Source of the DNA: Parasteatoda tepidariorum | Taxonomy: Eukaryota | Assembly: GCF_043381705.1 (NCBI RefSeq) | Contig: NC_092214.1 | Coordinates: 2,558,259-2,612,886, forward strand | Direction: 5' to 3' | Length of the DNA stretch: 54,628 nucleotides | Shown here: positions 23,920 through 33,908 of the stretch, piece by piece | How positions within the stretch are numbered: position 1 is the stretch's first letter | How the letters are laid out: each line of letters starts with the position of its first letter | Notes under the pieces: model-generated | What the model saw: only the letters and a program-made list of their open reading frames with translations | The model's database searches: none | What the model was told of the DNA's origin: nothing | Made by a program: the position numbers and the translations under genes

Positions 23920-24243
23920 AATCTAATTTAACATTAAGTTGATAAATAGATGCAGTACAAAGGAACTTAAAATTATTGACACTGGTAAGGAAATACAATT
24001 ATGTGCTGATCCATGAGAGAAACAATCCAGGTCAACTTTAAATACATCTATTAAGGATCTATTGTTCATGTTCATGCACTTTGTGTCACGTAAATTTTGA
24101 ATGTATGCATCATCACAAATATTTTCATTACATCGGTTTTCATGTTCGTAATCCTTTATCCATTCCCAAATCCATGAAAGTTCACAGCTACAGTAGAGTT
24201 GGTTTTCAGAAAGTGTGATGTACTTCAATGACTTACTGTTAAC
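23920..24243 (-). CDS. Chaoptin-like LRR protein, last coding exon (107 codons plus stop). It encodes the LRR C-terminal cysteine motif and a hydrophobic GPI-like tail.
   Basis: Acceptor cttttag sits on the minus strand at 24250-24244. The product reads VNSKSLKYITLSENQLYCSCELSWIWEWIK (LRR C-terminal motif), then ...GSAHNCISLPVSIILSSFVLHLFINLMLN* (hydrophobic C-terminus). It joins the second exon in phase 0. The stop is at 23920-23922. Confidence 0.6.
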
Positions 24244-27200
24244 CTAAAAGAAATGAATTAAATTATATTGCTTTGGGAAAGCCATATTCCTTTTTTTTTG
24301 TGTCAGGCACTTCCAAATCAAAATTTGAATTAGCTGAATATAAGCATTTTCCTAACCAGAATTTCCCTTATACTACTATTAATAAAATGCAGTATTATAT
24401 TAATTAATAATTTCACAAATAAACTTAAAATTTAGGTATTTAATGATGTTTCTTGCATAAAAAAATTGACACTAAACAATGAAAAATGATATTGCAAGGC
24501 CCGTGCTAAGGACTTCAAATTATTAGCCATTAAATTAGCCAAATAACAAAAGTATTAGCCAAATTTCAAAAATCTTATCCAAAGGCGAATCTTAACAATT
24601 TCTTATGATTGATTTTTTAACATAGAATACAAGTTGGAATACAAATTTACAATAAATTTAATTATTTTATAAAATGCAATTTAAAATCCAAAATCTTTTT
24701 ACAGTTGAGGAGGTGTAAAAAAGCTATGAATAGGAGAGAGGATAAAAAATATAGATGTTTTATGGTCTTTGAGGGAAAAAATTAGAAAAATGCTAATTTT
24801 TGATAACTTCTCAGACCAGAGCATTAATATAAGGATAAACCTTAGGCAACATTATGTTATTGTCACATTATTGTATATGCTTTTGTCACGAGAAAGCATA
24901 TTTCCTGCAAAAATATTTTGATGATAAAATGCATATTGCTACCTCATAATCTGTTTTATTGCCACAAACTATTGGAAAAATAAGTCACATCATATTGCAT
25001 GATCTGGAAATGAACGTGGTAATCTGTATTTTGCTGTAGTTTGTCACATGCTTACATAATCTCTCCAGTTATTTACATTGTCTAGACTTAATATAATTCT
25101 AATTGGTTGTGTGATGTATCTAGTGGAAATTACTGTAATTGAAAAAAAATAATAATACAGGATTTGTTCAGAAAAATTCTCTTTTGCCCTTTTTTTCAAG
25201 ATTGAGGGGGATATATATTTTTCTTTATGGTAGAAAGAATAATTTGCTTATACTTGTAGTGAATTTACAATTTTATCACATTTGGTGAGGTGGTGAATGC
25301 TTGGCGTGGGCCTTGTATTAATAATGACATATTATGGGATACCTTAGTTTATTATGTAAACACTGGAATAAAGTACCTTTTGACTGTGAATGCAAAAGTT
25401 TATTCTTTTTTATTTTCTACTGAATAATGATATAAATTATCAGACAAAAAATGTACTTTATTTTTAATTAAACTTATTGTTGTGAAAAATAGAATACGCT
25501 GGGGCGGGAAAAAAAATGGCATTTTTTATAGTCTCAATCAAAATTTGTTTCAAGGAACTTAGTATATAAAATGAGTCTAAAAAATATTATACTCATTTTC
25601 CAAAAGTGAGTAGGACATTTTCTCGAACACTTTTTGAGGTAATTATTTGAGTACACGGTATATTACTAAAAATCAATGTATGCTAGTTCTATGTCGAATG
25701 TGAATAAGAAAGTGTCTAAAATGTAAAATCTATATGATATTCACACACATATGCATATTTTTATTTGACACTAACTATTGATATTATTCTTATAATGCAG
25801 TTTTCTTTCTCTGAAGTTTAGTCTAAATTGTTCAGAGGGTAGATTTCAATTGTTTTAATTAATTGTTGTAAAATGAGGCAAAAAAAACATACTTTATCTC
25901 AGCGAATTTTTTTTTTTTTAATTCAGATATTTGACCCTGAAAAATAAAGGAATGGTCACAATCTGAAAAATCTGATCCCAAATCTTTATACTTTCCATCC
26001 CAAATGAGGTTTTAAAGATTTTAATGCAATTTACTTATTTTTTCTTTATATTTTGCTATATATCTCTTGAACTATTTGCCTGACCTTCTAATGTTTTGCA
26101 TTAAATTTAGAAGGTTAAACTGTTTCGTTTTATATGATCACTTTTAATTTCGAAAATTAATACCATTGATTAATAAGCTTGATTTTATTTTAATTAGAAA
26201 TGTAAAATTCAGTTTTTCCTTCTAAAACATGTTCTGTTTTAAAGAATTCTTGTTCGTAAAACTGCAGCATATTTTAGAAATTATATAATATGCAGCATGC
26301 TTAGGATCTTATAATAAGTAATTTTTATCAGAATTTACTATGAGTGTCATAATAACAATAATTTATAAGATAAACTAAGAAGCAACAAAGTTGAGATAAG
26401 GTAACTTTTTTAGCTGCACTTAACTAAACAGATTTTAGCACAGCCAAATTTTTTAAGATTTGGTTTTTTATACTGTTTTATGCTTTATGACATAAAATGT
26501 TTTGTTCATAAATTTTCATTTGATTTTTGATTTCTTTATTTTCATTTTTTATCTGTCTTGTTTACCTTATATTGTCTTATTCGCTTAGAATTTGCCAAAA
26601 ATATCCTATTTAAAGCAGTTAAGTAGTTCAAGGAGCTTGGTCATAAAGACTATCCATTAAGAAACATGGCTATTAAAAAGCCTGTTATTTGATATCCATG
26701 AAAAAATTCATCCCTGAATTGACATAACTGTCAGATGAATGCCAATAAATTGGAAATAAAAGCACTTGATATGAAGCCTTACAATAAAAGTTCAAAATAA
26801 TATTCAATAAAATAGGTATACAATGATCCAATGATGTCCACTAGCCCGACATCTAAGCTTTTAAGTTGAATTGTTTACCTAGATAATACATTGTTTCATC
26901 TTAAACAAGTGCTTAATCATTAGAACAACTTGTTCTACATCCCATCAATATTTATTGTATTTAAAAGTGTTCTTGGTTTGTTGAATAAATAGAATCTTGT
27001 GATATCAGTAAATGGCAAATTTAGTAACACCCAATTACTTGATCAAATGCTTTAGATTTTACTTTTTTAATTAAAATTTCATTTGAATGCACTATTATTG
27101 TCATTGGTCCTATAAATTTCCCTGTTTAAACCTCTCAAGAAATACATAAAAAAAATTGGAATGTTTCATGTATTCAAGAATAGAATTTTCTGCATAGCAA

Positions 27201-31100: not shown

Positions 31101-31313
31101 AAAAATTACTTTTTTCCAACTTTTAAGACTAATAGTAATACAAATATGTACAATAGATATAAAGGTTGACTTACCAAGTTAAGCATAAAGCTGTTTGAAA
31201 AAAAGGGGGGGGGTTCATTTTAATGTTAAATAGATATTATATCTTCTATTTCCATTATTATATCTATAATTTTATATCTAAGCAAGAAATATTACTTTAG
31301 TTTGTATACTTAC

Positions 31314-33908
31314 TAATTTTGGTAAATAATCAGTTTCTCCTGAACTTGTAATTGTTAGCTGATTATTAGCTAGGCTGAGGTATCTGAGGTTCTGAAAGCT
31401 TTTAAAATTACTAAAATTTAAGGATTGTATGAGATTTCCAGCTAGATCAAGAAGTTGTAAACTGTTCTTTAAAGTGAGCAAAGATTCTTGAGGAAATGCT
31501 TCTAAAAAGTTGTAAGATAAGTCTAATTGTTCTATATTTGTCTTAATAAATATATTTTCTGCCAATTCTTCCATACTGTTGTGTGAAGCTGAAAATATTC
31601 TCAGTCTTGATTGCTCATTAAATAAGTTTTCAGGCAATACTGTGATATTGTTAAATGATAAATTTAAAATTTGTAATGATGTAATCCCTTTAAATTCGTT
31701 TTCATCTACGGAATCTATCTTGTTGTTAGAAATAATCAACATTTGTAATTGAGCCATGTTAGCAAAAGCTGATACTGATAAATCTTGTATTAAATTATTA
31801 CTCAAATCTAGACGTATAACTGACTGGCGAATAGGATCAAAATAATTGTTGTCTATGTAAGATATGTTGTTATAGCTGAAATTTATATTCTTAATATTGC
31901 TTGATGTATGAATTACAGAATAATTTCCAGTTAAATTCTGAATGTTGTTATTATTGACATCGACTTTTAATGCAGAAAGCCTACCTACTTGATGAAAAGC
32001 TTCTAAATTGAAACTTAATAGTTTGTTATATGCTAAATTAATATATTGAACGTTTGGAAGATTTTGAAAGGCTTCGTTTTCAATATTCTCTATTAAATTA
32101 CCTTGTAGTTGAATATCAATAATTGAATCCAAATCTAAGAAAGCAGATTTTCTTATACTTTTTATATGATTATCATTCATCTGTAAATAAATTAATTTTC
32201 GTAAATTTCGGATTGTATATGAATTCAATGTACTAATTCTGTTAAAAGCTATTTTCAAATGTTCCACGTCTGGATTGTTAATATCATTAATGAAATTTGG
32301 ATGCAGATCTAGTAATTTATTGTAATTTAGATTCAAATATTTCAAATTCTGAAATGAAATAAAGGATTCATATGGTAGTTGTATTAAACCATTGTCACTC
32401 AAATCTAAATATTCCAATTTATTAAGGATGTTAAATATCTTAAAAGGAAACATAGTCAATTTAAATGCCTTGTGTAAGTTTAATTTTATCAAAGAGTGTC
32501 TGTTATCTTTAAAAGTAGAGTTTTCAATTTTTGTTATGCTGTTATAAGACAAATCAAGTTCTTTTAAACTACTCAATTTATTAAAAGCTCCATTTTCTAT
32601 CACTTTAATGAAACTTTTTGTTATAGATAGCTTTTCAATAGATGATCCAAAATTTCGTAAGTAGTCTTTATCTAGTAGAGATTGCTTCTTGTTAAATAAA
32701 TACTCACGCAAATTGAATAAATTCAAAATAACTTCATTATCAAGGCTTGTCATTTTAGGACCTCTTAAATCTAAGTATTTTAGAGTATTGCTGTATCCTT
32801 TTATGCTGGAAAAATTTATTTCTTTTATTGTATTACCTGCAAGTGATAGTCTCACTAGTTTTGTGAATGGTAAATCTGGAAATTCACCCAGATTGTTAAA
32901 ACTTAAGTCTACTACCTGCATTGAATGAGCAACACTATAAAATGCATTAGGTGTAATTAGGGATATTTTACAATAAGGCATGTATATCTCTGTTACATTG
33001 GTTATTAAAAAAGTATCATTAACTGTTTCTAATGGATTTCCTTTTAAAAATAATCGATTTATATGACTAAATAGTCTAAAACTCTGTGGTGTCAGCTCAG
33101 TCAACAGATTATTTTCTAAATGCAATTCCTCTAAATTAATTCGATTTCTTGTTTCTCGGCCTTCAGATATTGTTGAAATCATGTTATCATTCAAATTTAC
33201 TGTTTTGATATTTTTTAAATTAGCCAGTGCATTCAATGGAATTTGCTGAAGTTGATTTCCCATCAAATTCAAATGCTTCAAGTTATTTAGTCCACTTTGA
33301 AAAGTAATATCATCAATAGTTAGAATTGAGTTATAAGCCAAATTCAAAACCTCAAGTGAAATCATGTTTCTGAATGAATCTGTTTGAATATGCATTAGTG
33401 CATTATTTGTTAAATCCAATAATTTTAGCGTTTTTCCAATGCTTCGAAAATCGTCATTATACAGAATTGAAATGTGATTTTCACTTAAAATTAAACTACT
33501 TAATTTTTCTGAATTTAGTATTGCTTCTTTTGGTATCCTAAATAATTGGTTTTGGCTTAAATCTAACACTGATAAAGTTTTTTCAAGACCTGCCAAAGCA
33601 TTTGAAGGCAAATCAGATAGAAGGTTGCTGTTTATTTGAAGTTTCCACAATCCTGTACCATTCAAACTGTAATCTTCAAGATATTGCAATTTATTATTTT
33701 TCAGACTCATGATATAAATTGCAAATTTATTGAGATGAGGTGGTATAGTCATAAACGGAATATTTTCACAACTAACGGATCCTAAATCGGGACCTCCACT
33801 TGAGCAGGTACATAAAGAGTTAAATGTACATGGTCTGTGTTGTTCTTTTAACCTAGAATCGACGTTAGTGAGGAACAATAAAAAGCATACTTTCTCCAAA
33901 ACTTTCAT
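31314..33908 (-). CDS. Chaoptin-like extracellular leucine-rich-repeat protein, first coding exon (865 codons). It encodes a signal peptide, an LRR N-terminal motif and about 30 LRRs.
   Basis: The ATG at 33908 is immediately preceded by an in-frame TAG and a good acceptor (ttttctcttatag). The product starts MKVLEKVCFLLFLTNV, a signal peptide, followed by CTFNSLCTCS...VSCENIPFMTIP, an LRR N-terminal motif. It then runs through uninterrupted L..L.L..N LRRs. A GTAAGT donor at 31313-31308 follows ...DYLPKL, and the ORF track continues 11 codons past this donor. Confidence 0.75.

Follow-up and report, generated by a model that had tools for sequence, protein, structure and literature searches.

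A three-coding-exon gene for a leucine-rich repeat protein of Parasteatoda tepidariorum, a probable spider orthologue of chaoptin

Chaoptin of the fly is a GPI-anchored leucine-rich repeat (LRR) adhesion protein that is required for microvillar stability (PMC4021355; PMC2672165). It carries 16 NxS/T sites (PMC2672165), and its GPI anchoring is stated in both papers on the basis of earlier cited work. It is only for the fly protein that GPI anchoring, photoreceptor expression and adhesion have been established, and a literature search returned neither a functional study of a chelicerate chaoptin nor any mention of run SRR7472191, which lies behind the related spider transcript described below. 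The window analysed here is a stretch of 54,628 nucleotides from P. tepidariorum (contig NC_092214.1, positions 2,558,259 to 2,612,886), and its minus strand encodes a protein of much the same layout as Drosophila chaoptin. Both proteins have a CxxxxxCxC...C N-terminal cap, approximately 40 LRRs of 24 aa, an LRR C-terminal (LRRCT) motif of the form ...LR.T.C...D[LI].C, and a tail of 25-32 residues that stays hydrophobic up to its end, and the signal peptide of the fly protein has a probable counterpart in the window protein. Both also have many NxS/T sites, the window protein having 19 to the 16 of the fly. The window protein is approximately 80 aa shorter than Drosophila chaoptin, and the residues after the last cysteine follow the pattern F/V-S-x-small in the spider group, whereas they follow G-W-D/G-small in insects.

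The window contains an intact gene, the probable spider counterpart of insect chaoptin, with three coding exons and a complete coding sequence, on the minus strand. Coding exon 1 (33908-31314; 2595 nt, 865 codons) opens with the ATG at 33908-33906 and encodes the probable signal peptide, the LRR N-terminal (LRRNT) cap and approximately 32 LRRs. It is followed by intron 1 (28166-31313; 3148 nt, GTAAGT...tttcAG), coding exon 2 (28165-27371; 795 nt, 265 codons, aa 866-1130), intron 2 (24244-27370; 3127 nt, GTAAAA...ttttAG) and coding exon 3 (24243-23923; 321 nt), whose 106 codons (aa 1131-1236) encode the last LRR, the LRRCT cap and the C-terminal tail ahead of a TAG stop at 23925-23923. The splice sites were read from the sequence: intron 1 has the donor GTAAGT starting at 31313 and the acceptor ...ctttatttcAG ending at 28166, and intron 2 has the donor cag/GTAAAA starting at 27370 and the acceptor ...tcatttcttttAG ending at 24244. 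Both introns are in phase 0. A base-by-base check of these GT/AG sites agreed with all four splice coordinates and both phase-0 joins proposed in an initial annotation of this DNA; the length of about 1237 aa given there includes the stop, the spliced product being 1236 aa (865 + 265 + 106 codons). The ORF listing confirms that the 876-aa ORF runs 11 codons past the real donor, as had been noted, but the last exon does not lack an ORF counterpart as had been claimed: an ORF of 101 aa with an internal TTG start (23923-24228) is present at the 60-aa threshold and is lost only at thresholds above it. At approximately 27% GC, 865 consecutive codons would be free of stops with a probability of about 1e-33, as estimated from base composition, so this long open frame did not arise by chance. 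The scan for small additional LRR exons proposed in the initial annotation was carried out and found no LRR-like open frame in either intron, and the introns and flanks contained no domain-like open frame.

The exon structure is shared with other spiders. Nephila pilipes P0002 (63% identity) and Stegodyphus dumicola P0003 (61% identity), both annotated as "chaoptin" or "chaoptin-like", match over 100% of the length and are each encoded by three coding exons, in a gene spanning approximately 10 kb in Stegodyphus. The introns of both genes lie at the two equivalent codon positions, after aa 865 and aa 1130. Exon 1 is collinear with exon 1 of Stegodyphus (aa 1-865) and of Nephila, exon 2 has 265 codons in both of those species as well, and the counterpart of exon 3 in Stegodyphus has 105 codons, compared with 106 here. 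A further homologue from another spider, P0004 (58% identity), is encoded in one uninterrupted, intron-free ORF of an assembled RNA contig of 4021 nt. The homologues begin at the equivalent Met, and since P0002, P0003 and the transcript contig P0004 all align without gaps at either junction (aa 865/866 and aa 1130/1131), no coding exon is missing from the model. The Nephila model has 19 extra N-terminal residues from an upstream exon that are absent from the window model. None of the full-length records among the matches listed is identical to the window protein, which is represented there only by the exon-1 ORF (P0001). Metagenome contigs scanned for exact matches to the first 57 nt of the coding sequence gave none. 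The main value of the work lies in annotation, as a verified full-length gene model that the ORF track alone would split.

The product matched only LRR_8, LRR_4, LRR_1 and LRR_9 in Pfam. The same search gave no match to TIR, EGF, Ig or FN3 domains, which bears out the absence of the first three in the initial annotation. A strict LxxLxLxxNxL-type pattern identified 36 repeats, spaced about 24 aa apart, and the gaps between them amount to approximately 9 further repeat lengths, making the earlier figure of roughly 40 LRRs a fair one. Both of the cysteine motifs described previously are present, CTFNSLCTCS...VSCENIPFMTIP at aa 27-56 and NQLYCSCELSWIWEWIK at aa 1144-1160. The N-terminal cap (33741-33830) contains Cys27, Cys33, Cys35 and Cys47, all four of which are invariant in the homologue alignment. 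The C-terminal cap (24022-24192; aa 1148-1204, CSCELSWIWEWIK...LRDTKC...VDLDC) has the likewise invariant C1148, C1150, C1186 and C1204, and its LR.T.C ... D[LI].C motif is found in insect chaoptins too. A probable signal peptide was read from the sequence at 33855-33908 (aa 1-18, MKVLEKVCFLLFLTNVDS, with R as the next residue). Its n-, h- and c-regions are visible as a basic n-region, the hydrophobic core VCFLLFLT, and V at -3 with S at -1, so that VDS/R fits the (-3,-1) rule; the region is conserved among the spider homologues in the alignment.

In order to place the protein, BLASTP searches were carried out in both directions, the comparison covering the best 120 matches of each search; a closer chelicerate relative of insect chaoptin might rank below these. 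In the forward search, which the initial annotation had put forward as a check, the best named matches were spider chaoptin or chaoptin-like proteins (61-63% identity, full length) and not a Toll-like, Slit or other multi-domain LRR family; the next matches after the spiders were insect proteins that are also retrieved by a Drosophila chaoptin query. For the reverse search we used the Drosophila-type chaoptin P0121 (1315 aa), a cluster representative that the Drosophila chaoptin query had retrieved at 99% identity. Its alignment with the window protein spans 1262 aa with 31.7% identity and a score of 564 bits, and P0121 scored the window protein and its spider relatives above all other chelicerate LRR proteins in the sample. 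A neighbour-joining tree, built with a simple distance correction and not by full likelihood, joined the insect chaoptins and the spider group of the window in one clade (97/100 bootstrap). The insect chp subgroup and the spider subgroup were each recovered at 100/100, and the window protein was nearest to Nephila (75/100). Together with the LRR-only Pfam result, the searches in both directions and this clade support the chaoptin reading of the initial annotation, and we consider the window gene to be the spider orthologue of chaoptin (Drosophila chp) with a probability of approximately 0.88.

Database names alone are not a safe guide in this family, because at least four distinct LRR orthogroups among the matches listed bear "chaoptin"-type names; one of them, the FN3-bearing group, is a distant clade in the tree. 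The window gene might belong to another LRR-only orthogroup named chaoptin, chaoptin-like or artichoke, with a function unrelated to photoreceptors. One example is a second chelicerate "chaoptin-like" group comprising Parasteatoda P0029, Uloborus P0022, Larinioides P0016 and Limulus P0017, whose members resemble the window protein in being LRR-only, approximately 1250 aa long, capped by cysteine motifs and listed under the same database name. The similar length and the shared plan of signal peptide, LRRs and LRRCT throughout these orthogroups would allow such an assignment, as would the low overall identity of the window protein to insect chaoptin (about 32%). We regard it as unlikely, because the chaoptins of Drosophila, Tribolium, Bombus and Hermetia score the window group at about 550-650 bits and the second group at only about 320-410 bits, with P0121 itself giving the second group 316-363 bits (about 340). 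The second group has only 26-28% identity to the window protein and falls in a separate clade (100/100), whose insect members are about 1250 aa long and are not chp orthologues, and the groups are split in the tree at 97-100/100. The top insect matches of the window protein (P0008, P0009, P0010, P0012, P0013 and P0014) are also the top matches of P0121 within the set, and four of these six are among the matches listed for the chaoptin query. Of the orthogroups called "chaoptin", only that of the window groups with the fly gene.

The C-terminus was described in the initial annotation as hydrophobic and without a cytoplasmic domain, and the product does end in this way (ISLPVSIILSSFVLHLFINLMLN). 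The tail (23926-24021; aa 1205-1236, FSHGSAHNCISLPVSIILSSFVLHLFINLMLN) resembles a GPI-attachment signal, with candidate omega sites at G1208 (G-S-A) and S1206 (S-H-G). The 28-30 residues past the candidate omega sites reach a 12-aa Kyte-Doolittle average of 2.49, the last 15 aa of the product contain no charged residue, and the tail is the only stretch of the product with a 19-aa Kyte-Doolittle average above 1.6. It passed a heuristic check for small residues at omega and omega+2 followed by a short spacer and by hydrophobic sequence as far as the C-terminus, and by this heuristic alone it fits a GPI signal. The layout, in which the last Cys is followed by small residues and then by uncharged hydrophobic sequence to the end, matches that of insect chaoptins including P0121, and was found in 104 of 104 scorable chaoptin-clade sequences (4 relatives in the spider group, 99 insect chaoptins and the window protein). 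It is quite improbable that a correctly modelled coding sequence belongs to a silent or decaying locus, or that the protein is embedded in the membrane by its C-terminus or secreted instead of being GPI-anchored. The polar residues (S, H, N) within the hydrophobic tail could be read in that way, but the 1236-codon frame is open at a GC content of 27%, all four splice sites are good, all of the cap cysteines are conserved, the length and composition of the tail are those of the whole scorable clade, and the fly protein is described as GPI-anchored (PMC4021355, PMC2672165).

That the gene encodes a Toll-, Slit- or kekkon-like receptor with its other domains in missed exons, as the TIR- and FN3-containing LRR proteins among the weak tail matches (P0087, P0109, P0110 and P0070) might suggest, is extremely improbable given the collinearity of the whole model, Met to stop, with full-length homologues of equal length and with the transcript contig, the stop directly after the hydrophobic tail, the lack of TIR, EGF, Ig and FN3 matches in Pfam, and introns and flanks free of domain-like frames. 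The individual families were also rejected as candidates: Toll and Toll-like proteins since there is no TIR match and the protein ends inside its hydrophobic tail, and Slit, kekkon and FN3-type LRR proteins since EGF/LamG, Ig and FN3 domains were not found after the LRR block in Pfam.

As a spider chaoptin, the protein would be taken into the ER by its signal peptide, and a GPI lipid anchor would take the place of its C-terminal hydrophobic signal after cleavage at G1208 or S1206. The anchored protein would then be an LRR arch with heavy N-glycosylation at the outer surface of the plasma membrane. Its homology to the fly protein would make adhesion between the packed microvilli of rhabdomeric photoreceptors, stabilising the rhabdom, the most likely role; with no more than about 32% identity to insect chaoptin, the function could have drifted. 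The gene, an ordinary representative of a known family, holds nothing surprising to a specialist, and it supports the existence of a chelicerate orthologue of the insect adhesion protein of rhabdomere microvilli, so that comparison by expression or knock-down becomes possible. If it is eye-specific, it would serve as a marker and as a starting point for comparisons of how chelicerates and insects construct their rhabdoms.

Past the 3' end of the gene, TEP1-like TROVE exons are found on the opposite strand in the window, in Stegodyphus and in Nephila alike. On the far side, a six-frame comparison with the Nephila locus revealed no DUF4062, NACHT or WD40 exons, nor did Pfam find these domains in plus-strand open segments of at least 30 aa from approximately 35.2 to 54.6 kb; nesting of the gene within TEP1 is for this reason only a candidate in the window. 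A protein search for a full-length spider TEP1 returned fragments of 159-421 aa only. There is about an even chance that a true chaoptin orthologue, distinct from the Parasteatoda-type "chaoptin" paralogue, has been kept in chelicerates, and that in spiders it is fixed as a three-coding-exon gene lying antisense in a long TEP1 intron. Scans of the whole window found neither an Rfam family at the gathering thresholds nor a tRNA.

A candidate polyadenylation signal, AATAAA, lies on the minus strand at 23889-23894, 29 nt downstream of the stop, and is weak evidence because this hexamer is common in AT-rich DNA. At the other end of the gene, the window and L001 were searched for a 5' exon using both UTRs, 5' and 3', of the related transcript, which gave short matches at chance level only. 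An acceptor-like site, atttttctcttatAG, immediately precedes the ATG on the minus strand (33909-33925), Stegodyphus has ttttattttcAG directly before the ATG at the equivalent place, and in the Nephila model an upstream exon is spliced in at the equivalent point. This suggests that a short non-coding 5' exon probably lies upstream of the ATG exon, in which case the transcript would have more than three exons.

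Three open frames on the minus strand of the window (31278..33908, encoding 876 aa, 27359..28063, and 23923..24228) all consist of leucine-rich-repeat (LRR) sequence. Direct reading of the minus-strand junctions between them revealed a GTAAGT donor starting at 31313, a ctttatttcAG acceptor ending at 28166, a cag/GTAAAA donor at 27370, and an tcatttcttttAG acceptor ending at 24244, and all four splice sites were rated good. The coding exons extend from 33908 to 31314 (2595 nt), from 28165 to 27371 (795 nt), and from 24243 to 23923 (321 nt), and they join in phase 0 throughout to give a product of 1236 aa followed by TAG, in agreement with the three-block gene proposed in the initial annotation. 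The ORF list and the junctions also confirmed that the first frame runs 11 codons past its donor. The accompanying statement that no listed ORF corresponds to the last exon depends on the threshold: it holds at 110 aa, where the 101-aa TTG-initiated ORF at 23923..24228 drops out, and fails at 60 aa, where this ORF is retained. As the GC content of the window averages about 27-30%, the 865-codon open frame cannot be due to chance, the probability of which we estimate from base composition at approximately 1e-33. LRR-like sequence was absent from the stop-free stretches of both introns and of the flanks of the gene, and these stretches thus provided no additional small LRR exons.

The predicted protein aligns from its Met to its last residue with 'chaoptin' of Nephila pilipes (P0002, 63%), 'chaoptin-like' of Stegodyphus dumicola (P0003, 61%), and a transcript product of another spider (P0004, 58%), with no gaps at residues 865/866 or 1130/1131 in any of the three alignments. 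P0004 is encoded by one ORF, without interruption, on a contig of 4021 nt from the assembly of run SRR7472191; since this contig is a transcript, the three blocks are contiguous in the mRNA of a related spider. The annotated Stegodyphus gene spans 9996 bp of the genome with exons encoding aa 1-865, 866-1130, and 1131-1235, and Nephila has the 265-codon middle exon and exon boundaries identical to those of the window gene, so the intron positions are conserved. The gene likely also has a non-coding 5' exon, because an acceptor-like pyrimidine tract and AG precede the start codon both in the window (33909-33925, minus strand; tttttctcttatAG/ATG) and at the equivalent place in the Stegodyphus locus L001 (9985-10000; ttttattttcAG/ATG), and the Nephila gene model joins an upstream exon at the site equivalent to the window's ATG. 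A search of the window did not locate this exon.

Pfam analysis of the protein returned LRR families only, namely LRR_8 (E = 6.7e-111), LRR_4, LRR_1, and LRR_9, and no TIR, EGF, Ig, or FN3 domains; absence of the first three had been noted earlier. Database names are insufficient to identify the gene, and an all-against-all BLASTP of the hits spread the names 'chaoptin', 'chaoptin-like', and 'artichoke' over at least four separate LRR orthogroups. True chaoptin was instead sought by a database query with a Drosophila chaoptin sequence, which matched the Drosophila 'chaoptin' cluster (representative P0121) at 99% identity and recovered at least about 120 insect orthologues, including the best insect matches of the window protein (P0008, P0009, P0013, and P0014). 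When the chaoptins of Drosophila, Tribolium, Bombus, and Hermetia were compared by reverse BLASTP with the first hit set of the window protein, this protein and its spider relatives ranked just behind the insect chaoptins at 550-650 bits, and a second chelicerate 'chaoptin-like' group, with members from Parasteatoda, Uloborus, Larinioides, and Limulus, scored about 320-410 bits. P0121 aligned with the window protein at 31.7% over 1262 aa. A neighbour-joining tree of 41 sequences and 1215 columns united the insect chaoptins with the spider group of the window (97/100), and the insect chaoptins alone, the chelicerate group containing the window protein, and the second 'chaoptin-like' group of chelicerates and insects each had 100/100 support. 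The FN3-domain and 'artichoke'-named groups fell well outside the chaoptin clade, and the window sequence lay within a spider clade (100/100), closest to Nephila (75/100).

Judged by these sequence comparisons, the window gene is the chelicerate orthologue of chp, the Drosophila chaoptin gene. The reverse BLASTP, the 97/100 clade, and the LRR-only Pfam result bear out the identity originally suggested, and the alignments, Pfam, and the tree together indicate that interpretation as well as observation was correct in the initial annotation. The gene joins a well-known family, and the annotations of other spiders already include orthologues. Automatic naming in the databases is inconsistent; for example, the Hermetia protein called 'chaoptin isoform X1' (P0050, 1367 aa) shares 70% identity with Calliphora 'artichoke', the real Hermetia chaoptin being P0128, and the Parasteatoda protein named 'chaoptin' (P0029) falls in the paralogous group.

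The N-terminus of the protein (MKVLEKVCFLLFLTNVDS/RL) looks like a signal peptide: its start is basic, its hydrophobic core comprises 8 residues, and positions -3 and -1 are occupied by small residues. This region is conserved among homologues. It is followed by an N-cap (Cys27/33/35/47), an LRR block of 36 strict matches spaced 21-26 aa apart with three gaps that contain about 9 degenerate repeats, and a C-cap (Cys1148/1150/1186/1204); 19 NxS/T sites are present. The 32 residues after Cys1204 (FSHGSAHNC ISLPVSIILSSFVLHLFINLMLN) form the sole region with a 19-residue hydropathy average above 1.6, which extends to the final residue, and there are no charged residues in the last 15 positions. 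Among 104 scorable chaoptin-clade sequences (the window protein, 4 relatives from its spider group, and 99 insect chaoptins), between 25 and 52 aa follow the equivalent Cys (median 26.5), and in every one this tail has a small-x-small pair at its start and a hydrophobic end that lacks charge.

Fly chaoptin is described as a GPI-anchored LRR adhesion protein needed for microvillar stability (PMC4021355, PMC2672165). Because it is described as GPI-anchored and the tail layout is common to the chaoptin clade, the most likely mechanism is that the window protein would enter the ER, receive a GPI anchor in place of its tail around G1208 or S1206, and display a glycosylated LRR arch on the outer membrane leaflet; by homology with flies, adhesion through this arch may stabilise rhabdomeric microvilli. 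The sole mention of spider chaoptin found in the literature lists it with the visual genes under positive selection in non-diurnal spiders (PMC13372096), and no functional or expression studies of chaoptin in any chelicerate were found there.

A TEP1-like gene has exons on the plus strand, upstream of the 3' end of the chaoptin gene and heading towards it. For the search, the open segments at 15-200, 609-767, 7918-8076, 11175-11474, and 15955-16134 were concatenated; together they correspond to the C-terminal half of a TROVE domain (Pfam, E = 3.8e-40) and also match proteins named 'telomerase protein component 1'. A possible further exon lies at 22957-23028 (plus strand). Within the last three segments, the stretches 7918-8082, 11253-11420, and 15964-16110 have conserved counterparts in Stegodyphus; for 11253-11420 and 15964-16110 this holds in Nephila as well. 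Spider chaoptin is probably nested antisense within a TEP1 intron, since in Stegodyphus a single opposite-strand gene of 2010 aa (TROVE, DUF4062, WD40) spans the entire chaoptin locus, and the Nephila gene calls divide the TROVE part from the DUF4062/WD40 part, giving two genes, one on each side of chaoptin. The window itself does not demonstrate nesting, as no far-side host exons were found in it from about 35 to 54.6 kb. An open frame at 5157-5558 (plus strand) matches a copia-type LTR retrotransposon gag (Pfam Retrotran_gag_2, E = 6.5e-19) and is a transposon fragment within a TEP1-like intron.

A GC island of 330 bp at 34340-34670 (about 56% GC, against a background of 27%) lies upstream of the chaoptin ATG, at a distance of 430-760 bp, and is probably a degenerate 5S-derived SINE; its 5S-rRNA-like head (34351-34461, plus strand) is sub-threshold at 19.1 bits (E = 0.23; gathering score 38), and there is no second copy of the island within the window. 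The open frame at 36875-37564 (plus strand, 221-230 aa) gives the impression of a transposase and has no Pfam match. It resembles a piece of the Stegodyphus locus (L001 28925-29224) at 34% over 64 aa, and is probably a decayed DNA-transposon copy.
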